DNA from: Candidatus Latescibacterota bacterium
GTDB taxonomy: Bacteria; Latescibacterota; UBA2968
Direction: 5' to 3'
NCBI GenBank assembly: GCA_965207885.1
Contig: OZ242311.1
Span: 64,001-128,000 of the forward strand
Length of the DNA: 64,000 nt
The position numbers and the translations under genes are program-made. A model generated the notes under the pieces. It did no database searches. It was not told where the DNA came from and saw nothing but the letters and a program-made list of their open reading frames with translations. Shown here piece by piece: positions 5,855 to 22,194 of this stretch; position 1 is the stretch's first letter, and every line of letters begins with the position of its first letter.

Positions 5855-6703
5855 ATGTCTAACCCATTATTACCCACGACCAATGCCGACGGCTTGCCCG
5901 TCGCGCCCATGAGTGAAGAGCAGAAATACACATTTGACCTCAAGGGATGGATCTGCTTACCCGGCTTGCTCAGTGAAGAAGAACTCATCCCCATACGCGA
6001 ACACCAGATGAAACTTCTGAACGAAAGCGAATCACTGCCCCCTGATGAACGCGACAATCACGGCGGCGCATCGCAAATACTACTCGACCACCCGGCTGTG
6101 GTCGGTGTATTAAACGAAATCATCTCACATCAGGCACTGGCAACCGAAGACTGCTACGGATTTCGGTTCGACCATACGTACACCAGCCATCGACGAGCCG
6201 GTCACGACAACTTCCGACCCCATGGCGGGGGTGGATACTTCAACTTCTGCGGTAACTCACACATCTATCAAATGCAACCCGGGAAAATTCACGCGGGATT
6301 GATCCGCGTCGTCTGGGAATTAAATGAAGTGCGAAAAGGCGACGGCACCATGTTCTTATCGGGCAGTCACAAAGCCGCATTCCCGCGACCCGAAACCCTG
6401 AGCGGACGCGAAAGCGACCTGTGGGACACGTATTCCTGCGTTGCGGGATCCGCAGTAATCTTCACCGAAGCCCTGTGCCATACGGGCACTACATGGGGCA
6501 ACGAAGAATGGGACCGATTGAGCCTATTCACCTGTTACAACACCGTAAATGCAAAATGGGGCAAAAAATGTCCACCGCCTGAAGTCATTGCCGCCATGCC
6601 CCCAAAGCGCCAAACCCTGTTCCGCGGCGTCTGGCACGGCATGCGCGAAATACCAAATGTGAATAAATACTACGACGAAGCTAATATCGGACGCTACGTA
6701 TAA
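5855..6703 (+). CDS. Phytanoyl-CoA dioxygenase (PhyH) family protein
   Basis: KYTFDLKGW, PHGG, VVWEL, FLSGSHKA, AGSAVIFTEALCHTG motifs. Confidence 0.8.
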   Translation: MSNPLLPTTNADGLPVAPMSEEQKYTFDLKGWICLPGLLSEEELIPIREHQMKLLNESESLPPDERDNHGGASQILLDHPAVVGVLNEIISHQALATEDCYGFRFDHTYTSHRRAGHDNFRPHGGGGYFNFCGNSHIYQMQPGKIHAGLIRVVWELNEVRKGDGTMFLSGSHKAAFPRPETLSGRESDLWDTYSCVAGSAVIFTEALCHTGTTWGNEEWDRLSLFTCYNTVNAKWGKKCPPPEVIAAMPPKRQTLFRGVWHGMREIPNVNKYYDEANIGRYV

Positions 6704-6717
6704 AACAGGAGTAACCC

Positions 6718-7362
6718 ATGAACGTATTGATCACCTCGGGCAAAACAGCACTATCCCGGGCACTATCAGCAGAATTGGCAAAAGAACACAACGTCGTCCT
6801 GACAGATCTCGTAGATGTAGAAACAGATTGCGACTTTGTTAAATGCGAACTCGGGCACGAAGGAGAAACAGAAACCCTCGTACAGAGAATGGACGCCATA
6901 GTGCACCTCGCGGAACTGCCCGAAGAACTGAAAAGCGATGAACGGGAAATAGACTTTCAAACCCGATGTACTTATAACATCATGCACGCAGCACGGGAGA
7001 AAAACGTCCCCCACGTCATCTATATCAGTTCCCTCAGCCTATTCGCGTCATGCGACCCCAACTGGAATGTCACAGAAGTCTGGGCACCGCGACCCACAAC
7101 AGAGTCGGCACCCATGGCGCGCTACCTGGGTGAATTTACCTGCCGAGAATTTGCACGCGAGCACTCAGTCCGCGTAACCTGCCTGCGATTTGGAGATATA
7201 GACGGCGATGGCGACACAGCATTGACAACAGAAGACGCGGTAAAAGCCATCGGCAAGGCACTGGTAAAAAACGGACCCATGTGGCAGGTATTACACGTAC
7301 AATCAGACGTTGCAAATGCCCGGTTCCCCACAAATCAGGCAAAGCAAACACTGGGACTTTAA
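6718..7362 (+). CDS. NAD(P)-dependent epimerase/dehydrogenase (uronate dehydrogenase-like; degenerate Gly-rich loop)
   Basis: MNVLITSG, DAIVHLA, TYNIMHAA, YISS, VTCLRFG motifs. Confidence 0.7.
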   Translation: MNVLITSGKTALSRALSAELAKEHNVVLTDLVDVETDCDFVKCELGHEGETETLVQRMDAIVHLAELPEELKSDEREIDFQTRCTYNIMHAAREKNVPHVIYISSLSLFASCDPNWNVTEVWAPRPTTESAPMARYLGEFTCREFAREHSVRVTCLRFGDIDGDGDTALTTEDAVKAIGKALVKNGPMWQVLHVQSDVANARFPTNQAKQTLGL

Positions 7363-7375
7363 CAATGAGGTAAAC

Positions 7376-8098
7376 ATGAAAGTTGTAATCTACGGAAGCA
7401 ATGGCCAGTTGGGACCGCATGTGGTCAAAGCTCTGGAAGGACATGTGGATCTGCGCTTAACCGACCTGGAGCCATTTGACACCCCACACGAAATGATGAT
7501 CGTAGATGTATCAGACCCCGATGCGGTCGCGCGCGCGGCAGAGGGCATGGACGCAATCGTCAACCTATCGGTCTTGCGCCCCCACCGACAGATCGCCTTT
7601 GATGTCAACACCCTGGGATGCTACAACATCATGCGCGCAGCAGTTGCACACCGAATCCCGAGGGTCATCAACACAGGACCGCACTTCACCGTACAGGGCG
7701 CACCCTACGAGGCATTGGATTACAACATCGGTCCCGATGTCCCCCCCAAACCCAGCACAAACCTATACGCCCTATCCAAGGGCCTGGGCCAAGAAATCTG
7801 CCGAATCTTCACCACACAGAGCGATGTCTATGTACTGTGTTACTTATTCTACATCTTCTGCTATCACGACGACCTGTCAAGACCCGGCCTGAACCGCCCG
7901 TTCCTCGTAACCTGGCGCGATGCTTCAGCGGCATTCTTGCCGGGCCTGACCATCGACCTCAAAACCCTGCCATCGCAATGCGAAGTCTTCAACATCTTTG
8001 CAAACCGACCGCACCAGAAATTCTCAAACGAAAAAGCAAAGCGTATCTTGGGGTGGCAGCCGAAAGATGACCTGGCGCATACCTATACAAAAAAATAA
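7376..8098 (+). CDS. NAD(P)-dependent epimerase/dehydrogenase (uronate dehydrogenase-like)
   Basis: GSNGQLG, VNTLGCYN, YALSK (YxxxK) and KAKRILGWQP motifs. GAGG upstream of ATG 7376. Confidence 0.85.
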   Translation: MKVVIYGSNGQLGPHVVKALEGHVDLRLTDLEPFDTPHEMMIVDVSDPDAVARAAEGMDAIVNLSVLRPHRQIAFDVNTLGCYNIMRAAVAHRIPRVINTGPHFTVQGAPYEALDYNIGPDVPPKPSTNLYALSKGLGQEICRIFTTQSDVYVLCYLFYIFCYHDDLSRPGLNRPFLVTWRDASAAFLPGLTIDLKTLPSQCEVFNIFANRPHQKFSNEKAKRILGWQPKDDLAHTYTKK

Positions 8099-8153
8099 AA
8101 AATTCGACTTTGAAACCCGAAAAGGGATCGAAAAGACCAGTACAGCATCTGCT

Positions 8154-8405
8154 ATGACCATACCTGCAATTCATCCGGGAGAACACCTCGCCGAAGAGTT
8201 GAGAGCACTCGACCTGAGCGCAACATCACTCGCACGACGGATTGAGGTACCCACCACCCGAATCACTGAAATCCTCAACGGACGACGTGCAATTAATGGC
8301 GATATGGCCCTGAGATTGGCTCATTTTTTTCATACCAGTGCAGAATTCTGGCTAAATTTGCAGAAACTCTATGAGTTGCGAATTGCTGAGGAGAAAGTCC
8401 GATGA
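8154..8405 (+). CDS. higA: HigA-family addiction-module antitoxin (orphan, possibly truncated)
   Basis: IHPGEHLAEEL...RITEILNGRRAI..DMALRLA.FF.TSAEFWLNLQ..YEL. No toxin gene adjacent. Confidence 0.85.
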   Translation: MTIPAIHPGEHLAEELRALDLSATSLARRIEVPTTRITEILNGRRAINGDMALRLAHFFHTSAEFWLNLQKLYELRIAEEKVR

Positions 8406-8545
8406 TTACGTCGAGACACAGATTGCGAAAGCTGTTGCTGAAGTCAAGGGCAAATCATGAGACGCCTGTGCCATTTGTCGCCTATTACAAAGAATGCATG
8501 TGTAGCAACTTCTGCACTATCCACTAAAGCGAAGTAACTGCAACG

Positions 8546-9421
8546 ATGTTAATTAATGACCATAAAAAAATAATTAAAGTATATAAGGAAACATCTTTAT
8601 ATCTTCAAAACAATCCGAATCTTTCGGAGGAGCTTGAAATCTATATTTCCTCGTTTTATGAACTCAATGACCTGATTCCTCAGTACATTGACAGACTCGG
8701 ATCTGGCCACTTTTTTCCTTTTTTCGAGGCTTATACAGAACTCGAAAATTCAATTGAATTGAGCAAACAAGGCTTCTATCGCCATGCTCTTTTTTCTTTT
8801 AGAAACTCATTAGAGTTAGTAGTGATAGGTCTCTATTTTGATAGAGAGGATCAAGCGCACAAAGAAATTCGATCTTGGTTTACGTCTGATGATCCAACCC
8901 CACGTTTTAGTCGGATGCTCGATAAACTGCTTCAACTACCCAATTTTGCTATCTTCAGTGCTGAACGGCCGATGCGTGATGAAGTGAGACAACTTTATAG
9001 TGAACTTAGTGATTTTGTGCATATAAGAGGCTTTAGATATAGCTCCACAGGCCAAGGCAAAGTACATTTCAATAGTTTTAGTGAACAGGCTTTTTTGAGA
9101 AACATTTGTTTATTGAAGCAAATTGTACATTGTTGCATAAAACTGGTATTACTCAAGTACCCAATCGGTGTTCAAGAACTCCCACTATGGGAAAAATTTG
9201 GGTTCAATAAACCAATTGGAGGTTTTTTAGAATCACCTAACGTTGTCCTCCGTTTACTACCATCCTCTGATGTATGCCTTCTTCAAGAAATCAGTAACAA
9301 TGACTTGGAGGTACAAGAATTATCTGAAGAGATTCACAACATGCCTGATTTAACAGAGGAAGAAATAGATCTTCAACACCAAAGATATCGTCAAATGCAT
9401 AAAATCAGGGCGCATCATTGA
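8546..9421 (+). CDS. Hypothetical protein, possibly HEPN-like
   Basis: AT-rich 291-aa ORF. FRNSLE and LYSELSDFVH resemble HEPN/DUF5677-type motifs. Confidence 0.55.
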   Translation: MLINDHKKIIKVYKETSLYLQNNPNLSEELEIYISSFYELNDLIPQYIDRLGSGHFFPFFEAYTELENSIELSKQGFYRHALFSFRNSLELVVIGLYFDREDQAHKEIRSWFTSDDPTPRFSRMLDKLLQLPNFAIFSAERPMRDEVRQLYSELSDFVHIRGFRYSSTGQGKVHFNSFSEQAFLRNICLLKQIVHCCIKLVLLKYPIGVQELPLWEKFGFNKPIGGFLESPNVVLRLLPSSDVCLLQEISNNDLEVQELSEEIHNMPDLTEEEIDLQHQRYRQMHKIRAHH

Positions 9422-9633
9422 ATTAAAGCGCGACTTGGCCTGGACCAGTTGCACCTCGTCCCCAATGCAGGTTCTTGCCGCTTATCCCCCGATGCCGTAA
9501 TTTGTTAAAAAGGCAGCAATTGCCTATAATACGGAAACTCGAGTTGATTGATAACGACGTGATTTGACTCGGTCCAAGATTGAGAATCCGATGATCGTAT
9601 TATTTATATAATAGTCCTATAGTGGAGACATAC

Positions 9634-11343
9634 ATGGCGCTTCATAGTGCTGAGCAAAACGTCGTGAACAAGCAGGGACTGAATACTCAAGTAGCGGATC
9701 CCACTTACCGCAAAGTTTTGCGGATCAATCCTCGCCGTCTCCTGGGGGCGTACTACACCCCTGACGCACTTGCAAGTATTTTGGCAACATGGGCACTCGC
9801 GCCTAGGAAGGGGAACGTCTTAGATCCGAGCTTTGGCGGGTGTGCGTTCCTTAACGCGGCAACTACGATTCTGGCTTCCAGGGGTATTTCAAAACCCGGT
9901 AAGCGGGTCTTCGGCGTTGATGTGGACCCGACGTGTATGGAGTACGTACGCAAGGATCAAAATCTCGTCGAGAAGAATTGCATTATTCGAGACTTTCTCA
10001 GCTTGTCTCCAAAAGATATACCCGGGGCACCGTTTCACGCCATAATCGGCAATCCTCCCTACGTGCGTCACCACTGGTTCAATGGAGCGACTCGAAAGGC
10101 AGGCAGGGTAGCCATGGCTGCCGCAGAAGTAGCACTTCCCGAAACTGCGAGTGCCTGGGCGTATTTTCTGATTCACACACTGAGCTTTATCGCAAAGAAC
10201 GGCCGACTCGCAATGCTTGTTCCAGAAGCGATCCTTCAGGCGGACTATGCCACTGTCGTCAGGGACTTGCTTACATCCCGTTTCGATCATGTCTGCCTGG
10301 TTCACATTCGTGACCGTCTGTTTGAGGGCACAGATGAAGCTGTAGTCGCAGTCGCTGCTTCGCAATATGGTGGTAAAAAAGGCGTCTTGCGCGTTGAAGC
10401 CGTCGAGCGGTCTGAGGACCTGGCAGCAGTCCTGAACACCCCAAAAGGCGGGCGTTCTACTTCCCATTTGACAACCCCAAAAGGACGCCGCATTGACTCA
10501 CAGACTGTCCAATTACTCGGTGAATTGGAGCAACATCCTGCGGTCCAAAAGATTTCCGATGTCGCAACCGTGAGTATTGGTTTAGTCACAGGCGCCAACA
10601 AACACTTCATCCGTAATGCCGAAAACTTGAAACAACTTGGTATTCCTCACGAGTCTTGTGTACGACTAATTTCTCGTACGCGATGGCTATCAGGGCTAGA
10701 TTTTACTGAAGAGGATCTCCAGAAACTCGTCGAAGCGGACCAACAAGCCATCCTGGTTCGGCCCACGCCAGAGTGCGAAAATACTCCCGGCATCAAGCAG
10801 TGGATTGACGAAGGGATTAAGGCCGGTATTCACGAACGATATAAATGCACCATACGCGATCCCTGGTTTCGTGTTGATCCAAAGCCTGTACCAGACGCCT
10901 TCGCTACATGTGCCCGTATGGGCGCTCCCTTGCTCGTTCTCAACCGGGCTGGTTGCCAATGTACCAACGCACTTCATGCGATGTACTTGCATTGTCGAAG
11001 CAATGCCTCTCTACCAGCCATCGCTATGGGGTTCCTCACAAGTGCCGTGAGTGTCTGGGCAGAACTCCACGGACGGCGGTACGGAGGAGGCGTCTTGAAG
11101 ATGGAACCCGGTACCCTGAATAGAACGCCGGTACCGATAGTTCAGGGCGCGGAAGCCGCCTTCGACGAACTGAATAAACTCATTCGAGATGGGCGAGAAA
11201 CCGAAGCAAGAAAACGGGCGGACGATCTCGTGCTCAGAGATCAATTGGGTTTGCCAAAGAAAGACATTAAGCGATTACAGCAGGCACACGCCCTGTTGAT
11301 GATCCAACGCCGCCCCACCAGGAATGGAACCGGACATGGCTAA
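9634..11343 (+). CDS. N6-adenine DNA methyltransferase (gamma class, Eco57I/TaqI-like)
   Basis: GAYYTP, VLDPSFGGCAFL (motif I), IIGNPPY (motif IV), C-terminal GRRYGGGVLKMEP. GGAG precedes ATG 9634; alternative start GTG 9622. Confidence 0.9.
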   Translation: MALHSAEQNVVNKQGLNTQVADPTYRKVLRINPRRLLGAYYTPDALASILATWALAPRKGNVLDPSFGGCAFLNAATTILASRGISKPGKRVFGVDVDPTCMEYVRKDQNLVEKNCIIRDFLSLSPKDIPGAPFHAIIGNPPYVRHHWFNGATRKAGRVAMAAAEVALPETASAWAYFLIHTLSFIAKNGRLAMLVPEAILQADYATVVRDLLTSRFDHVCLVHIRDRLFEGTDEAVVAVAASQYGGKKGVLRVEAVERSEDLAAVLNTPKGGRSTSHLTTPKGRRIDSQTVQLLGELEQHPAVQKISDVATVSIGLVTGANKHFIRNAENLKQLGIPHESCVRLISRTRWLSGLDFTEEDLQKLVEADQQAILVRPTPECENTPGIKQWIDEGIKAGIHERYKCTIRDPWFRVDPKPVPDAFATCARMGAPLLVLNRAGCQCTNALHAMYLHCRSNASLPAIAMGFLTSAVSVWAELHGRRYGGGVLKMEPGTLNRTPVPIVQGAEAAFDELNKLIRDGRETEARKRADDLVLRDQLGLPKKDIKRLQQAHALLMIQRRPTRNGTGHG

Positions 11344-13660
11344 GTTCACTGTTGACACCCACTTGTTCCGAGAACTCGGAGAACTACTGGTCGGACGCGA
11401 CTCCACCGCCTTGATCGAACTGATCAAGAACGCCTACGATGCCGATGCGACCGAGGTCACTGTATATGGTGAGCGACTCGACAATCCAGAAGAGGGACAT
11501 ATCCTGGTAACGGACAACGGCGTGGGCATGAATCCGGAAGAGTTCACGAAAGGTTTTCTGAGAGTTGCTTCGCGTCTGAAGGAGCTGGGCGAGCGGCGAT
11601 CCATCTTATTCCAACGCCGTTACACTGGTGCGAAGGGAATTGGTCGGCTTGCTGCTCATAAGCTTGCGCGAAAACTCGAAATTGATAGCGTACCGCAGCT
11701 CTCTGAATTGGATAGGACTCGAGAAGCTCTGAACGCCACAATAGATTGGGACAAAATAGAGCAGTACGAAACCCTGGATGAACTTGACTCTACCGACGCG
11801 ATTCTTCTGGACACCAAGACAATAAGCAAGAACACTCGTTCAGGAACAGCACTTCTCCTATCGCGGTTGCGACGAGCCTGGACCAAGACTGAGCGTGCGA
11901 GGTTTTTAGCTGAGGTTCAATCGTTTGATCCCCCTTCGTTTTTGTGTGAGCCGCTCCCGCGATCGGTTATCGAAGAGCCACTGCTGTTCGACACGCCAAT
12001 TGTACGAGACCAGGGTTCCGATGCCGAGACCTCTTCATTCCGGGTAAACCTTGAAGGAGACTTTGCCGCAGGTGAAGACTACTGGGCGCTTGTTGCGGCA
12101 ACGTTTAACTGGATACTGGAGATTCGGACAGATCCCAATAATGGACACATAGGCTTTGGAATTGCTCCTACAAAAAAGAAGCTGAGGGAAAATCCCGAGA
12201 TTGAGGCATTCTATCATACCATACCTCACCCTACTCCCGAGCGTGGACCCCATTTTGACGCACGTATTCTGGTGAGAGAGGGCCATCAAAAATTTACTCG
12301 AGACCAACGGACGTGGGCAACGAACACCAGTGGCGTTCGAGTTTATCTGGAAGGGTTTCGCGTCCTACCGTATGGAGAACCAACAGACGATTGGCTCTCC
12401 ATTGACGCGGATTATGCGAGACGCCCCCGGCAGCTCGAAATGCTCAAGGATATTGGATTCGGCACAGAAGCTTCTGACCGCAATATTGGACTTGTTCGTG
12501 CGCCGAGCAACAATTACTTCGGCGCAGTTTTTCTTACCCAAAATCGCTGTCCTGAAATGCGACTTCTGGTGAATCGAGAAGGGTTTGTCCCAGAGGCGAG
12601 TTTCGAAACCCTGGAGCGGTTAGTCCGGATGGGAATAGACTTCCTGACTCGCGAGCGTGCAGCGGAGTCCTACGAGCGGCGTCAACAACGAAGGGAGGAT
12701 CGGCGTAAGGGTTCTACAAAGGAAGATACCCCGCAGAGTTCCACCGATATAAGTCATGTAACCAACGACAATATTGAAGTCCCTGAGTTTTTGGAGCGAA
12801 TTCAGGAAGCAACTCATTTAATGAAAAAAGCTGGTGAACATCTTACCGGCGATGACAAAGACGCGACTAATGCAGCTATGCAGAAGTTGGATGAGGTGAA
12901 AATACTCGCTGAAGATTTTGAAGATTTGATTTCAGAACACATGCTCTTATATGTCCTCGCTTCTGTGGGAACTCAGATGGCCGCGTTCGTACATGAGATC
13001 AACGTCTTACTCGCAGCATCACAAACCATTGAGCAGGTGCTTGAAGAGGTGCTTGCTGAGGGTGGTCTATCGCTTGATGAAAGGCGCAGGTTCAGGCGTA
13101 CCTTGAACCGCGCGACAGAGCTCAAACACAGTCTGGAACGTCAAGCCTCTTACTTGATGGACGTCGTGAGTGTTGATGCGCGCCGCCGCCGGTCTCGCCA
13201 GCGTTTATGTGAACGTTTCGATGCCGCAGTTCGTCTCGTACAGCATCAAGCAGAACGCCGAAGTATCAAAATTGACAATCATATTCCACCCGAATTGAGG
13301 TCTCCTCCCCCGATGTTTCCCGCTGAGATTACAGCGATATTCGCCAATCTCCTGACAAATGCGGTTAAAGCCGCTGGAGAGGATGGACATATCCTTGCTT
13401 CAGCATCCAGTGGAAATGATCAGGTTCGGATTCGCATCCAGAACACCGGCACTGCCGTCCAACTCAATGACGCCGAGCGCTGGTTCAAACCCTTCCAATC
13501 AACAACATCTGAAGTAAACCCCGTGTTGGGCCAGGGGATGGGGCTGGGACTGACTATTACACGGAACCTGTTGGATAACTATGGAGCAGTTGTGAAATTC
13601 ATCCAGCCGGATAGCGCATTTGCAACTGCAGTCGAAATAGCCTTGCCAAGTAGGAGTTAG
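11336..13660 (+). CDS. MORC/GHKL ATPase fused to a sensor histidine kinase module
   Basis: N-terminal ELIKNAYDADA, DNGVGM, GAKGIGRLA; central GVRVY..GFRVLPYG, NREGF; C-terminal H-box AAFVHEI, NLLTNAVKA, FKPFQST, GMGLGL. Overlaps the methyltransferase stop. Confidence 0.88.
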   Translation: MAKFTVDTHLFRELGELLVGRDSTALIELIKNAYDADATEVTVYGERLDNPEEGHILVTDNGVGMNPEEFTKGFLRVASRLKELGERRSILFQRRYTGAKGIGRLAAHKLARKLEIDSVPQLSELDRTREALNATIDWDKIEQYETLDELDSTDAILLDTKTISKNTRSGTALLLSRLRRAWTKTERARFLAEVQSFDPPSFLCEPLPRSVIEEPLLFDTPIVRDQGSDAETSSFRVNLEGDFAAGEDYWALVAATFNWILEIRTDPNNGHIGFGIAPTKKKLRENPEIEAFYHTIPHPTPERGPHFDARILVREGHQKFTRDQRTWATNTSGVRVYLEGFRVLPYGEPTDDWLSIDADYARRPRQLEMLKDIGFGTEASDRNIGLVRAPSNNYFGAVFLTQNRCPEMRLLVNREGFVPEASFETLERLVRMGIDFLTRERAAESYERRQQRREDRRKGSTKEDTPQSSTDISHVTNDNIEVPEFLERIQEATHLMKKAGEHLTGDDKDATNAAMQKLDEVKILAEDFEDLISEHMLLYVLASVGTQMAAFVHEINVLLAASQTIEQVLEEVLAEGGLSLDERRRFRRTLNRATELKHSLERQASYLMDVVSVDARRRRSRQRLCERFDAAVRLVQHQAERRSIKIDNHIPPELRSPPPMFPAEITAIFANLLTNAVKAAGEDGHILASASSGNDQVRIRIQNTGTAVQLNDAERWFKPFQSTTSEVNPVLGQGMGLGLTITRNLLDNYGAVVKFIQPDSAFATAVEIALPSRS

Positions 13661-13662
13661 CC

Positions 13663-14808
13663 TTGAGTATGAATAATATCAATAAGCCGTCCATTCTTAT
13701 CATTGACGATAACCCTGACCTCGTCAATATAGAGTTGGGAGACCGCGCAACGACTTATGTAATTCATCCTCAGGATGTAGAAAGATCGGACCTGAATAAT
13801 GCTGATCTGGTTCTGGTGGACTATGCGCTGGAATACTGGTCAGAACGGGATAATCTATCGATCATTTCACTCCAGCCAGCAACCGGAATGGCTCTTGCGG
13901 TTGTGCTACGGGAGCAAGTAGATCAAAATGAAAAAGACAAATTAACAGCATTTGCGCTATATACAGCTCGTCTCAGAGATATTAAGGGGCGATTTGCCCC
14001 TGCGACTGCTCAACACGTTCTTGCGCGCCTGAACAATCTGGAATGGATATTCCCAAAGACGAATCCTGATAGCTACTCAAAGACGAATCCTGATAGCTAT
14101 AACCAGATACTCCTTCTTGCGGATGCTGTCCGGGAGCTTCCAGGCCAATGGTCGAAAGATTCGGATTCAAGGGTGCAACAACTTCTCGATATGGATAAGG
14201 ACAACGAATCGTTTGAGCGCTGCTGGCGTGATGTTAAAGATTGCCGGGTGCCAATTGAAGAATTGTCTGAGGGAGAACATAGCATCCTTTTTATTCGATG
14301 GTTGCTTCATCAAGTATTGCCGTATCCTTGCTTTCTGTGGGCGGAGCACTGGGTTGCAGCACGCCTTGGGATTTCTATTGATGCCCTGCGTGAGGTACTG
14401 GAGGGAGATAGCGATCTGGCGAAAGACTTGGAGTCCATGCGCTATTCGGGGATTCTCGCGGATTTTTTGGGAGATAGGTGGTGGCGTGGTGCTATCGAGG
14501 ACTACGCCTGGAATTTAGTAGAAGGACACACGGCTAATGTACAACATTTACGAGATGCCTTGGCCGAGCGTGCCGGAATGAAACTGAAGTCAATTGACGT
14601 CAACCCCGCTGTGGTTTGTGTGGATAAAAATTGGCAGCCCATCGACAAATTCCTATCGCCAATGGATACCATAACCCTGCATCCTGACCACTGGCCCGCG
14701 TTTGCCGACCCAGCCTGGATGGACATCGAGACTGTGCGAAATGAAGCGACTCTGTTGCCATTGGTGGATCCCCTTGACCAATACCTCATCGAGAATGATG
14801 AAGAATAG
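13663..14808 (+). CDS. Response-regulator receiver domain protein with unknown C-terminal domain
   Basis: ILIIDDN, LVLVDYAL (phospho-acceptor Asp), TGMALA, LYTA. Starts 2 nt after the kinase stop. Confidence 0.75.
   Translation: MSMNNINKPSILIIDDNPDLVNIELGDRATTYVIHPQDVERSDLNNADLVLVDYALEYWSERDNLSIISLQPATGMALAVVLREQVDQNEKDKLTAFALYTARLRDIKGRFAPATAQHVLARLNNLEWIFPKTNPDSYSKTNPDSYNQILLLADAVRELPGQWSKDSDSRVQQLLDMDKDNESFERCWRDVKDCRVPIEELSEGEHSILFIRWLLHQVLPYPCFLWAEHWVAARLGISIDALREVLEGDSDLAKDLESMRYSGILADFLGDRWWRGAIEDYAWNLVEGHTANVQHLRDALAERAGMKLKSIDVNPAVVCVDKNWQPIDKFLSPMDTITLHPDHWPAFADPAWMDIETVRNEATLLPLVDPLDQYLIENDEE
14054..14099 (+). repeat. In-frame 24-bp tandem duplication (KTNPDSYS KTNPDSYN)
   Basis: caaagacgaatcctgatagcta occurs at 14054 and 14078. 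Confidence 0.85.
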
Positions 14809-14818
14809 GACGGCAAGA

Positions 14819-15547
14819 ATGGCTGGGTTTCGCTTTCATTTTTCTGAACTGATCCAAGAGGCCGAAGTGATGCAAACCTTGTCAAAGAGGTTCCTTGATC
14901 CGAATAGGATGTGGGTTTTCTACAGGTTCTTGAGCGCCCTCCGCAGTATTGATGGAAAACCTATAAAAAATGTTTATCCTCTGCAACTTCATTGCCTTCA
15001 CACAAGACCAAGCGATCAGTACGACAGGAAAGCAGGGAAAAAGATATATGCGGTTATTTCAGGAAAGTGGCAGTTGCGACCATTAGAGAAGCACGAGATA
15101 GAATTCTGCGGGATCGCTTCGACGAGGATTGAGTTGTACGCTTCGGATGCTCCTGAGACACGCTTAGCAATGTGGAGCCTGGAACTGGGTGCTGAAGACA
15201 GTCCTGGCTGTTATGTTCACGCTCATATTCTCGGGGACCCCGTCGATCCTCGATTCCCGAAATCAGTTTCTATTCCCAGATTGCCCAGCCTCTTCGTCAC
15301 TCCGATGAGTGCTGTAGAGTTCGTCCTCGGCGAACTCTTCCAAGATAGGTGGTCCAAGGTGACCGACAGCAATGCTAAAAAAGTGACTCGTTGGCGTGAT
15401 ACCCAAAAAAGGTGGCTTCAGAGTCTGTTTTCATGGTACAATGACCAAATGGAGAACGCGAGTTCCTCTCCGTGGATGGCATTAAAGAAGGCAAAGCCAC
15501 CAGAAGACGGCATGTTTCTCCAAAAATCCAGAAGACGGAGATCGTGA
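14819..15547 (+). CDS. Hypothetical protein, putative effector of the methyltransferase/kinase operon
   Basis: Follows the receiver gene by 10 nt. SPGCYVHAH...IPRLPSLFVTP..AVEFVLGELF motif. Start uncertain (14795, 14798 or 14819). Confidence 0.65.
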   Translation: MAGFRFHFSELIQEAEVMQTLSKRFLDPNRMWVFYRFLSALRSIDGKPIKNVYPLQLHCLHTRPSDQYDRKAGKKIYAVISGKWQLRPLEKHEIEFCGIASTRIELYASDAPETRLAMWSLELGAEDSPGCYVHAHILGDPVDPRFPKSVSIPRLPSLFVTPMSAVEFVLGELFQDRWSKVTDSNAKKVTRWRDTQKRWLQSLFSWYNDQMENASSSPWMALKKAKPPEDGMFLQKSRRRRS

Positions 15548-15579
15548 AAATTTAGTTAGAGCCACATCGTGTCGTGCGC

Positions 15580-15619
15580 AGACCAATCAAAATCGCTGAC
15601 TGATTGGTCTTATTTTTTT
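15580..15619 (+). terminator. Rho-independent terminator
   Basis: agaccaatca-N11-tgattggtct stem followed by tattttttt. Confidence 0.75.
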
Positions 15620-15735
15620 GTCTAATTGTCTTTATACTCAAAAACACCATTGCAAAGCCCTGTTTTCACGCTTAAATTGCAGATATTCGTACCATTATTA
15701 TTATGGCCACAACTCCTGCCACAAGGAGAACAAAC

Positions 15736-20176: not shown

Positions 20177-20300
20177 GTGACTACTCCCAACGCTAAAGCA
20201 GTTGGGCTTCTTGGCGGTCAATCCGCCTGACGTTGTAGCCCCAACGTCAATATGTTTATCGCAGCATTGTGGTCTCTGTCCGTCTTATAGCCACACGCCT
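20157..20300 (-). ncRNA. Predicted TnpB omegaRNA/reRNA (scaffold at the right end plus flanking guide)
   Basis: Inferred from established TnpB biology. Scaffold 3' end at 20177; guide GCACGATGTTTATTGACGAC. The 5' boundary is a guess. Confidence 0.55.
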
Positions 20301-21342
20301 TGCAATGATGCACACGCTCAGAAAGTGCTTTCTTCTCTCTATGTCCGCATGCAGAGCAATCTTGTGACGTATATTCAGGATCAACGGCCTTGAATCCAAT
20401 ACCAGCCTCTTCCGCTTTGTATTTGAGACAGTGCCGAAACAGGGACCATGCTACGTCTGCTATTGATTTAGCCAATCGTCTGTTCTTTTGCATCTCTTTC
20501 ACGTCCAATTTCTCTACGGCTATGAATCCGTGACGATTGACCATTTTTCTTGATTCTTGATGAGCAAAGTTATGTCGTTTATTACGGATACGCTCATGCA
20601 CTCTACCAATGACTTTACGACGCTTTTCTCTTACGGCGTCGGTCTTGGGTCTTTTTTTCACCGCGTCCCATTTGCGCTGTGTTTTGGCAAGAGATTTCTC
20701 TTCTTTCCTAAAGAATCTCTGATTCTCTATTTTCTGTCCGTCACTGGTCACAGCAAAGGAATTGAGACCCACGTCAATGCCAACAGCAGAGCCAGCGGTT
20801 GGTTTCTTCTCTTTTTCGCCAATATCGCAAGAGATAGACACAAACCACTTGCCTGTTGCTGTGCGTGTGATTGTGCAAGACTTAGGGATACCCTCAAGTG
20901 ACCTGTGCTGGACAATGCGAATGCAACCAATACTGCCCAATCGCAAGCCCTTGTCGTCCAATCGACATCCATTGGCAAACTGAGGATAGGTGATAGAATC
21001 ATAGCGATGCTCATTCTTGTATCTGGGAAAGCCAGCTTTCTCGCCTGTCTTTGACTTCCCTTTGAGACGCCGAAAGAAACCTTTGAATGCCAAATCTACT
21101 CTTGCTGACACTTGTTGCAACACCTGACTATACACTTGCTTGAAAGCGGCGTGTTGTTGTTTTAACACTGGTATTGTTTTGGTCTGGTCATATTCAGAGA
21201 GAGACTTATTCTCATTTTTCCATGCTTGTATTCTGGCACAGAGTAGTTGATTATAGAGAATACGACATTCGTCAATATGCGCCAGCAAGATTTGTTCTTG
21301 CTTTTTGGTCGGACGCAATCTGTATTTGAATGATTTAACCAT
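20218..21342 (-). CDS. tnpB: RNA-guided endonuclease TnpB
   Basis: KSFKYRLRPT HTH, GFPRYK, RuvC residues in GIDVG / AVEKL / DRDHNAA, and CSACG..CKACG zinc finger. Confidence 0.95.
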   Translation of the reverse strand: MVKSFKYRLRPTKKQEQILLAHIDECRILYNQLLCARIQAWKNENKSLSEYDQTKTIPVLKQQHAAFKQVYSQVLQQVSARVDLAFKGFFRRLKGKSKTGEKAGFPRYKNEHRYDSITYPQFANGCRLDDKGLRLGSIGCIRIVQHRSLEGIPKSCTITRTATGKWFVSISCDIGEKEKKPTAGSAVGIDVGLNSFAVTSDGQKIENQRFFRKEEKSLAKTQRKWDAVKKRPKTDAVREKRRKVIGRVHERIRNKRHNFAHQESRKMVNRHGFIAVEKLDVKEMQKNRRLAKSIADVAWSLFRHCLKYKAEEAGIGFKAVDPEYTSQDCSACGHREKKALSERVHHCKACGYKTDRDHNAAINILTLGLQRQAD

Positions 21343-21348
21343 AATAAA

Positions 21349-21377
21349 AATATATACTTATATGCATTTTTTGTCAA
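21349..21377 (-). promoter_or_regulatory. Sigma70-like promoter of tnpB (probably leaderless)
   Basis: TTGACA-N17-TATATT, with the ATG 7 nt after the -10 box. Confidence 0.6.
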
Positions 21378-21464
21378 GATTTTTATCGCTAAAGCAATAC
21401 CAAAATCACAAGCCCTCATATCCCAACGCTAAAGCTGTTGGGTTTTACGGGCTGTTTGATAAGG

Positions 21465-21493
21465 TTGCGTAAAATTGCAACATTTGCTATAAT
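21465..21493 (+). promoter_or_regulatory. Sigma70-like promoter of vapBC
   Basis: TTGCGT-N17-TATAAT with an extended TG. Confidence 0.6.
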
Positions 21494-21529
21494 TTATTGC
21501 TTCCATGACATCATTAAAGGATTTTAGCC

Positions 21530-21784
21530 ATGAATAAAATGATAAAAACAAAAGTAACAGCGCAAGGGGTTTTGATCCCTCGGCAGTTGTTAGAAGGAAT
21601 AGAGGAAGTAGAAATAAAAAAAGAAAATGATGTGATTACAATTATGCCGACGGGACAGATGAACGCCTGCGGTAGTAGTACACAGCTTGATCCCATTTGG
21701 AATCTGGGTGAAAATCCAGTCGAATGTGGTATTTCAGATGCTTCCGAACAGCATGACAAATATTTGTATGACACATCTTCATGA
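21530..21784 (+). CDS. Putative AbrB/SpoVT-like antitoxin (VapB)
   Basis: TKVTAQGVLIP..., C-terminal ISDASEQHDKYLY; ATGA overlap with the PIN gene. Confidence 0.75.
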   Translation: MNKMIKTKVTAQGVLIPRQLLEGIEEVEIKKENDVITIMPTGQMNACGSSTQLDPIWNLGENPVECGISDASEQHDKYLYDTSS

Positions 21785-22194
21785 ACACAAATATATTCTT
21801 TCTTGATACAGGTTATCTCATTGCCCTTGAAGCTTCTAACGACAAAAATCATACACGCGCAAAAAATCATTGGCGAACTTTTATTCGCACACGCCCGTCT
21901 TTAGTGACCACCTCCTTTGTTTTCGATGAGGTGGTCACTTTTTTTAATAGTCGAAATCGACACGAAAAGGCCGTTGAAGTTGGCTCGCACCTCTTGAATA
22001 GTCCTTCTGTTCAGCTAATCCAGGTGGATGACGCCCTTTTTCGCAAAGGTTGGGAATATTTCGAGCAACATTCAGATAAGCTCTACTCTTTGACAGATTG
22101 CATTTCATTTGTTGTTATGCAGCAACGGAAAATTCAGACTGCCCTAACTTTTGATAGGCATTTTACTCAAGCCAATTTTTTGACCATTCCCTAA
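21781..22194 (+). CDS. vapC: VapC-family PIN domain toxin
   Basis: FLDTG, VFDEV, SLTDCISF and TFDRHF catalytic acidic motifs. Confidence 0.92.
   Translation: MNTNIFFLDTGYLIALEASNDKNHTRAKNHWRTFIRTRPSLVTTSFVFDEVVTFFNSRNRHEKAVEVGSHLLNSPSVQLIQVDDALFRKGWEYFEQHSDKLYSLTDCISFVVMQQRKIQTALTFDRHFTQANFLTIP

Follow-up and report, generated by a model that had tools for sequence, protein, structure and literature searches.

A 64,000-nucleotide stretch of contig OZ242311.1 from Candidatus Latescibacterota bacterium, referred to here as the window, contains a cassette of four adjacent genes, g1 to g4, whose predicted products are an N6-adenine DNA methylase, a protein in which a MutL/MORC-type GHKL ATPase head is joined to a histidine-kinase transmitter, a protein with a receiver fold, and a 242-residue protein without match to a solved fold. 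Probably, the cassette was acquired horizontally and serves in defence as a restriction-modification-like system linked to a phosphorelay, of the type of "Ambrosia," a validated anti-phage system of Pseudomonas aeruginosa described in a preprint (van den Berg et al., 10.1101/2025.09.30.679545). Pfam, PADLOC and NCBIfam all miss the family, although its members occur across many phyla and also on plasmids in bacteria that can be cultivated.

From bacteria to plants and animals, ATPases of the MORC type take part in immunity and in the silencing of chromatin, and little is understood of how they transmit a signal. The direct fusion of a MORC-like head to a histidine kinase offers a tractable phosphotransfer read-out of what the head senses. 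Should g4 truly be the effector, bacterial immunity would gain a new effector class, and the cassette would also illustrate how an ATPase of the MORC type connects to a histidine kinase.

A four-gene cassette that travels as a unit

The four genes travel together. Their linkage can be followed in 43 related loci, defined as loci that encode a relative of g3 and drawn from a scan of one genome per species, in which the genes were sought by tblastn. All four are present in 37 of these loci, in agreement with the first-pass annotation of this DNA, which had taken them for one candidate defence system. The order methylase-kinase-receiver-g4 is found in 28 of the 37; the methylase follows g4 in five, lies inverted downstream in three, and one locus is rearranged. 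Where the methylase moves, the g2-g3-g4 core stays together, and the methylase that follows g4 in the five loci is a different N6-adenine enzyme (24-28% identity). Several of the incomplete loci are truncated or disordered: one contig ends in g3 (L016), another starts in g2 (L028), a third locus is a fragment (L043) and a fourth is rearranged (L014), while a second contig (L027) of the metagenome-assembled genome that holds L014 carries near-identical cassette pieces together with g1. That Vicinamibacterales genome has a decayed copy, with g2 in pieces on both strands. Another decayed copy is L008 (2050-5687 and 9140-11913), where insertions of about 2 kb split both g1 and g4.

Clustering of the open reading frames of at least 150 residues in the 43 loci gives a similar picture, as only the four cassette families are common (42, 40, 39 and 38 loci). 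Behind them come three families (29, 21 and 15 loci) of antisense frames inside cassette genes, and the true flanking families, which are housekeeping genes, occur in at most six loci each, so that no fifth conserved gene is found among these families.

The distribution of the family is broad among phyla and patchy within them. By record title, the loci come from Latescibacterota, Poribacteria, Binatia, Gammaproteobacteria, Chloroflexota, Thermodesulfobacteriota, Acidobacteriota, Gemmatimonadota, Bacteroidota, Myxococcota, Actinomycetota, Planctomycetota, Armatimonadota and Cyanobacteria, and two cultivated strains carry plasmid copies (pCCa of Clavibacter californiensis and pTH2c of Rhizobium sp. 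TH2). Relatives of g3 number 346, with none in phage records. The genome studied here has a single copy of the g3 family. Within the phylum the family is present in 6 of 168 genomes, this one among them, and within the genus 4 of the 20 other genomes have it. The cassette is mobile, and this together with its patchy distribution fits a role in defence. Identities to the window are mosaic: L004 is 90% identical in g1 and g2 and 66-70% in g3 and g4, while for L001, the closest relative, the values for the four genes are 89, 72, 80 and 63%. Across L001-L004 these patterns suggest, at the level of sequence, recombination between cassette copies.

In the window itself, the segment of about 7.6 kb that holds the cassette is an insertion, because the left flank (6000-8100) and the right flank (from about 15728) abut in three genomes of the same genus (G385, G384 and G377). 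No recombinase is found in this island. Its first gene encodes an XRE-type helix-turn-helix protein, beside which there is no HigB partner; this gene may be the controller of the cassette, either as a C-protein or as an analogue of the Ambrosia regulator AbrR. The following gene, g0, has no match in Pfam, PADLOC or PHROGs, and remnants of it, of the C-terminal end only, lie upstream of the cassette in L001 and L002. The coordinates of all these features are collected in the table.

Table. Features of the island and of the four-gene cassette (positions within the window)
Feature	Position	Strand	Description
Inserted island, ~7.6 kb	8090-15727	+	Boundaries within ~10 nucleotides
HigA/XRE-type helix-turn-helix protein, 83 residues	8154-8405	+	phrog_1381 "plasmid antitoxin with HTH domain," 2.8e-20
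g0, 291 residues	8546-9421	+	G+C 0.365; between XRE gene and g1; outside conserved cassette
Sigma-70-like promoter match	9502-9530	+	TTGTTA-17-TATAAT; ~100 nucleotides 5' of g1; 10/12 positions fit
g1, 569 residues	9634-11343	+	Predicted N6-adenine DNA methyltransferase, Eco57I-type, with C-terminal target-recognition domain
g2, 774 residues	11336-13660	+	Predicted MutL/MORC-type GHKL head and histidine-kinase transmitter
His553 codon of g2	12992-12994	+	Predicted phospho-accepting His; H-box alignment; invariant in 31/31 sequences
g3, 379 residues from ATG	13669-14808 (ATG); alternative TTG start 13663	+	Predicted receiver fold and C-terminal region
Asp51 codon of g3	13819-13821	+	Predicted phospho-acceptor; invariant; C-terminal end of strand beta-3
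Perfect in-frame 24-bp tandem duplication in g3	14054-14099	+	KTNPDSYS/KTNPDSYN; just past the receiver's conserved Lys
g4, 242 residues	14819-15547	+	Protein without match to a solved fold
Terminator-like hairpin and U-tract	15580-15620	+	Closes operon 3' of g4

The layout of g1 to g4 (9634-15547) is that of an operon on one strand. The first-pass annotation had described four tightly packed, co-oriented genes, and in this the 8-nucleotide overlap of g1 and g2 and the 10-nucleotide spacing of g3 and g4 hold. Its 2-nucleotide gap between g2 and g3 depends on the TTG start of g3, which has an AGGAG 6 nucleotides 5' and thus a better Shine-Dalgarno spacing than the ATG; because the orthologues start near the ATG, the gap is given here as 2 or 8 nucleotides. 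The terminator that had been placed after g4 is indeed there, with a perfect 10-bp stem and an 11-nucleotide loop (15580-15610) followed by UUAUUUUUUU to 15620; its fold has a z-score of -2.76, and 1 of 200 shuffles folds equally well. A simple consensus scan did not list it because the loop limit of that scan is 8 nucleotides. The promoter entry in the table is a consensus match only, of a kind as frequent in the region as shuffles predict, and no inverted repeats are found 5' of g1 at a seed of 6. The G+C content of the cassette is 0.48-0.53, and none of its four proteins contains a hydrophobic stretch suggestive of a membrane segment.

The encoded proteins

Matches in Pfam to N6_Mtase (2.7e-17), M_Eco57I_C (2.7e-22) and Eco57I, an end-to-end match to the PADLOC model for Type II methylases (MTase_II, 5.3e-93) and a conserved G139-N140-P141-P142 motif identify g1, on sequence grounds, as an N6-adenine DNA methylase of the Eco57I type.

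The second protein is a composite. A head (residues 24-147, HATPase_c_3, 4.1e-19) is followed by a conserved middle (about 300-440); H553-E554 lie in a DHp helix, and the catalytic domain of the kinase (665-771, HATPase_c, 9.8e-21) comes last. Profile comparison of the head with solved structures gives weak matches to MutL (3.2e-05), MORC2 (3.5e-04) and PMS2 (3.4e-03), and the head also matches the NCBIfam model restrict_BbrUII (8.3e-22) over residues 3-187 only, which correspond to the GHKL head of the BbrUII/HgiDII restriction enzymes. In PADLOC only two partial models of Type II restriction enzymes (REase_II) match g2, again in the head alone (about residues 4-187). PADLOC misses the cassette as a system, an outcome that the first-pass annotation had named as support for novelty. 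Head positions E28, N32, D60-G62-G64 and G98-K100-G101-G103 are invariant in 31 of 31 orthologues, as are kinase positions H553, N675, N703-x-G705, F717/F720 and G732-G738, and conservation reaches 95% or more at 173 positions across 38 sequences. The middle block, with R335...G347, D352-W353-L354 and V412...F417, is strongly conserved too and is common to the canonical HEF_HK proteins discussed below.

All of the kinase boxes (H, N, G1, F and G2) are present in g2, the His of the VHEI motif aligning with the phospho-His of ZraS and HK853. The two GHKL modules, this H-box and an altered G1 box had all been read correctly in the first pass. In the G1 box, which reads NTG, N replaces D; this need not inactivate the kinase, since the solved sensor-kinase chain 3a0t has NSG at that position of the same alignment. 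No hydrophobic segment reaches a Kyte-Doolittle mean of 1.6 over 19 residues. From these signatures g2 is a soluble protein in which a MutL/MORC-type ATPase head is combined with a predicted intact histidine-kinase transmitter.

For g3, assignment relies on structure rather than on family models, as no Pfam family matches it even at E 10, a profile search of PDB sequences gives 0 matches, and no PADLOC model matches either g3 or g4 at E 0.001 or better. In the AlphaFold model (mean predicted local distance difference test, pLDDT, 68.8) residues 4-160 adopt a receiver fold: the top 50 VIA-align matches (Z 8.4-10.3) are nearly all receiver or response-regulator domains. D13 and D14 lie at the end of strand 1, D51 at that of strand 3 (47-51) and T/S99 at that of strand 4, with K130 after strand 5. 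As D13, D14, D51 and K130 are at least 95% conserved in 43 sequences and T/S99 is conserved, the receiver quintet of DD, D, T/S and K is complete, and the receiver fold that the model gives g3 has all of its phospho-acceptor residues, including the DD pair and Asp noted in the first pass. A conserved C-terminal region (about 165-379), modelled at pLDDT 84-95 from about residue 220, contains a helix-turn-helix-like pattern, HWVAARLGIS..ALREVL, and 4 of 33 g3 relatives give weak matches to DUF4423 (best E 0.004); the ESM Atlas returns no usable match to it, and D340 is its one acidic residue at or above 95% conservation. The tandem duplication in g3 is shared with P0007 alone among 32 other aligned relatives.

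The fourth protein, which occupies the position of the nuclease in Ambrosia, is modelled with confidence (pLDDT 84.5, predicted template modelling score 0.85) as a five-stranded antiparallel sheet of long strands with N- and C-terminal helices on its flanks. Searches with this model find no match in the PDB by Foldseek (best E 0.11) or among the BFVD viral structures (best E 0.025), and a best Z of 3.7 among 48,161 chains by VIA-align; a profile search of PDB sequences gives only E values above 1, and Pfam, NCBIfam, PADLOC and PHROG give no match. No ordinary Type II endonuclease appears in the library and structure searches of g3 and g4, and the earlier statement that the cassette has no recognizable restriction nuclease therefore stands. 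The nearest ESM Atlas clusters of g4 are hypothetical proteins, one of them (at 0.93) automatically named AbrEi-like (AbiEi), and a further neighbour cluster at 0.86 has DUF2290 in 15% of its members. The family comprises 522 representative clusters in a library of 1.84 billion proteins, the 150 listed being free-standing proteins of 169-291 residues. Positions at least 95% conserved include E14, H134, R154 and E172, and no Lys. Predictions of a g3-g4 complex score 0.33, 0.00 and 0.00, which is evidence neither way. One apparent fusion of g4 to a GHKL protein (P0149) was rejected, as it is a deletion derivative on a 2-kb contig in which the first ~160 residues of g2 are joined to g4 from about residue 50.

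A proposed relay and its alternatives

The Ambrosia preprint (10.1101/2025.09.30.679545) describes five genes, AbrR-AbrA-AbrB-AbrC-AbrD, for an XRE regulator, an N6-adenine methylase, a HATPase/histidine kinase, a receiver-winged helix-turn-helix (REC-wHTH) protein and a Type IV HNH endonuclease. As reported there, the system blocks two phage groups, every gene is needed, and a D60A substitution in the receiver loses defence. Infection induces reporters placed in the cluster, and phage propagated with only the methylase present does not lose its sensitivity; the authors favour a model of transcription induced by infection, in which the relay controls expression of the restriction-modification-like enzymes.

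A comparable route can be proposed for the cassette. The GHKL head of g2 would sense an infection cue, either DNA or a phage product, and g2 would autophosphorylate on H553 and hand the phosphate to D51 of g3. Phosphorylated g3 would then act via its helix-turn-helix-like C-terminal region, either by raising operon expression, the proposal made for Ambrosia, or by switching on g4 directly. In the slot of the Ambrosia HNH enzyme, g4 would be the effector, and the g1 methylase would mark self DNA or, as suggested for Ambrosia, make the mark that the effector acts on. A bolder version, in which g4 is a new-fold effector (a nuclease or other toxic enzyme) switched on by phosphorylated g3, and in which methylase, MORC-kinase and receiver are a general chassis for unrelated effectors, is offered tentatively, with more doubt than belief.

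Several observations weigh against the Ambrosia-type reading. The likeness to AbrA-D is one of architecture, as the preprint describes it. The cassette lacks a conserved XRE regulator, as the one upstream here recurs in L001 only, and no family of small upstream reading frames occurs in more than 3 of 36 loci. The g4 protein is no HNH enzyme, and the sequence and structure searches match it to neither a nuclease nor any other known fold, so that its candidacy as effector comes from its position alone. The possible helix-turn-helix in g3 is read from the sequence pattern and the weak DUF4423 matches. Two loci, L023 and L024, carry g3 alone among unrelated genes. Flanking defence genes are few: among 146 flanking open reading frames, a tally of the commonest families among the matches listed gives at least one reverse transcriptase and three OLD/AAA-type defence ATPases. 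Finally, there is no phenotype for the family, and a defence role, as read from sequence, is plausible.

The solitary g3 relatives, in two Longimicrobiales genomes (L023, 7965-9107; L024, ~8001-9116), are 44% identical to g3 and occur without g1, g2 and g4; their neighbours are HicB/nucleotidyltransferase genes and Type I S-subunit-like/DUF5131 genes.

How the relay is triggered, and what it acts on, can be envisaged differently. The first-pass annotation had proposed a methylation-guarded system that senses unmodified DNA or inhibition of the methyltransferase. In an arrangement of this type, g1 would mark self DNA, the g2 head, possibly complexed with g1, would detect unmethylated sites, and the relay would work after translation, activating g4 or the C-domain of g3 with no transcriptional step in between. 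The 8-nucleotide overlap of g1 and g2, which by tblastn coordinates is a few nucleotides in most methylase-kinase-receiver-g4 loci, fits stoichiometric co-production of the two proteins, and the head belongs to the MutL/MORC class, which has been proposed to work on DNA in restriction-modification operons (PMC2292703). Moreover, with g3 and g4 10 nucleotides apart in one operon, g4 cannot be regulated apart from g3. Nothing found here shows such sensing, however, and no DNA-reading domain was identified in g2. In eight loci the methylase has been swapped for distant ones (24-33% identity) while g2-g4 are kept, which is awkward if g2-g4 read the same DNA site, and the Ambrosia results, namely the sensitivity of methylase-modified phage and the infection-induced reporters, point the other way (10.1101/2025.09.30.679545). 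A methylation-guarded mechanism is thus considered unlikely.

It is more doubtful still that g4 is an adaptor, inhibitor or immunity-like partner, with the killing or blocking activity residing in the middle region of g2 or the C-domain of g3. Such a role would suit the few conserved acidic and basic residues typical of nucleases in g4, the strong conservation of the g2 middle block that canonical HEF_HK proteins share, and the long unassigned C-terminal regions of the receiver-like proteins in a 2021 catalogue, which as described have no fourth gene (PMC8011034). On the other hand, g4 is linked as tightly as the other genes (39 loci) and sits in the slot of the Ambrosia nuclease, and the C-domain of g3 has just the one acidic residue of high conservation.

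Equally improbable is that the cassette is no immune system at all and is instead a mobile epigenetic regulatory module (an orphan methylase with a two-component pair acting on host genes) or a selfish addiction cassette: the absence of a known phenotype, a possibly DNA-binding g3, an island without recombinase and the many housekeeping genes among the flanks would agree with this, but they are set against presence in only 4 of 20 other genomes of the genus, copies on plasmids and beside defence genes (in the Piwi case described below, of a distant g2 relative), decayed copies with insertions or deletions (L008, L014/L027 and P0149) and the same core in the validated Ambrosia (10.1101/2025.09.30.679545).

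Defence genes do adjoin some members of the family. In L001 a retron-type reverse transcriptase directly follows g4 (10306-11472, - strand; PADLOC RT-Protease_XI, 3.8e-131), for which the window has no counterpart. Behind the Rhizobium copy lies a GIY-YIG/DUF4357 gene matching the single-gene candidate PDC-S14 (2.5e-99), with a superinfection-immunity gene nearby. On a Hymenobacter plasmid a distant g2 relative (27.5% identity) adjoins a Piwi-domain gene, and neither g3 nor g4 is detectable in that locus. Elsewhere in the window, a TnpB/IS605 OrfB-type gene (20218-21342, - strand; OrfB_IS605, Cas12f1-like_TNB and HTH_OrfB_IS605) is followed by a stretch of low G+C content (21001-22000, 0.388).

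Comparison with known systems

The cassette shares parts with several kinds of known systems. It differs from Type II restriction-modification in having no recognizable endonuclease, as the REase_II and BbrUII models match the GHKL head of g2 alone, and it resembles classical two-component systems in the kinase boxes of g2 and the receiver quintet of g3. The Detocs system, attributed to Rousset and colleagues, reportedly consists of the kinase DtcA and the receivers DtcB and DtcC, with an ATP nucleosidase as effector. Like the proposed relay, it is described as an anti-phage, two-component-like phosphorelay ending in an effector, but that description has no methylase or GHKL head, and the effector is a different and known one. 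An N-terminal MutL/MORC-class GHKL domain with intact ATP-binding motifs and an association with methylases are features shared with the prokaryotic MORC/paraMORC ATPases of restriction-modification operons, a class proposed to work on DNA (Iyer, Abhiman, Aravind 2008, PMC2292703), with BbrUII/HgiDII and with the GHKL-Shedu protein VcSduA (PMC12137116). As described, those proteins end in or pair with nucleases or helicases, whereas g2 ends in a histidine-kinase transmitter. A figure legend of DefensePredictor includes an unvalidated HATPase+REC prediction.

A closer relationship is found with the "HEF_HK" kinases. Bellieny-Rabelo et al. (2021, PMC8011034) catalogued computationally pairs of HK-like proteins (HATPase_c_3 + HEF_HK + HATPase_c) and RR-like proteins (Response_reg_2), linked in 91.6% of 644 regions and tied, by their account, to restriction-modification genes, chiefly C5 methylases. 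The g2 profile matches three bona fide HEF_HK kinases at E values of 1e-21 to 1e-25 in three colinear segments, which places g2 in the same kinase lineage. Both have the HATPase_c_3, DHp and HATPase_c order in a soluble protein and adjoin a receiver-like gene and a DNA methylase gene. Each of the three loci examined has a C5 methylase, a kinase of 982-1003 residues and a receiver-like protein of 531-617 residues, in contrast to the N6-adenine methylase of the cassette, to g2, which is about 200 residues shorter, and to g3, which is about 150-240 residues shorter; g4 has no counterpart in them. The models PF19191 (HEF_HK) and PF19192 (Response_reg_2) match neither g2 nor g3 even at E 10, nor anything in the whole genome. 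Sub-threshold PF19192 matches occur in 6 of 33 g3 relatives (best E 0.078), and when g3 is compared with PF19192 proteins by hhalign, the probability is 52% (E 1.5e-4), over strands beta-3 and beta-4 only. The precedent that the first-pass annotation had claimed, of MORC ATPase-kinases with receivers in restriction-modification operons, thus exists in the catalogue (PMC8011034), but mainly with C5 methylases and with models that fall below threshold here. That g3 and g4 together (621 residues) represent one split canonical Response_reg_2 protein was rejected, as g4 gives an hhalign probability of 0.4% and the g3 match covers the receiver only.

A sample of 400 gammaproteobacterial genomes yielded no HNH-bearing variant; it contained one more member of the family, unrelated GHKL kinases and a distant variant, L083 (7914-13898), in the order kinase, receiver, unassigned gene, methylase, whose 265-residue third product is weakly like g4 over its full length (hhalign E 0.012). 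The same order is seen on the Hymenobacter plasmid (L062, 4085-11176), where the 289-residue protein has no similarity to g4. A search of plasmids with g2 gave no Pseudomonas record. In L061, L084, L086 and L087 other kinases with GHKL heads (about 700-725 residues) are followed by proteins of 280-450 residues, and the stretch examined shows no methylase; they may represent additional modules of the relay type.

The closest parallel in architecture, as described in the preprint (10.1101/2025.09.30.679545), is with Ambrosia. Both have in one cluster a Type II-like N6-adenine methylase, a HATPase/histidine kinase and a receiver; both are restriction-modification-like and not classical Type II, and an XRE-type helix-turn-helix gene is present in the window's island. 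The methylase feature of AbrA is found in g1, the sensor histidine kinase/HSP90-like HATPase of AbrB in g2 at the level of architecture only, and the receiver of AbrC in the fold and D51 of g3, whose C-domain gives the helix-turn-helix-like pattern and weak DUF4423 matches. The differences are that AbrD is a Type IV HNH endonuclease whereas the slot here is taken by g4, that the XRE gene is parted from g1 by g0 and recurs in 1 of 43 loci, and that Ambrosia is reported mainly from Pseudomonadales while the g3-bearing family is spread over many phyla. Because it is without the HNH nuclease and without a conserved XRE gene, the cassette is kept apart from membership in Ambrosia. No experimental paper on the exact g4-bearing variant was found in the literature. 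The architecture class as such is already catalogued (2021) and, according to the preprint, validated, so that the earlier statement that no experimental characterization of it was known no longer applies. The comparison with Ambrosia also raises the question of whether the methylase in systems of this type protects self DNA or creates the target.

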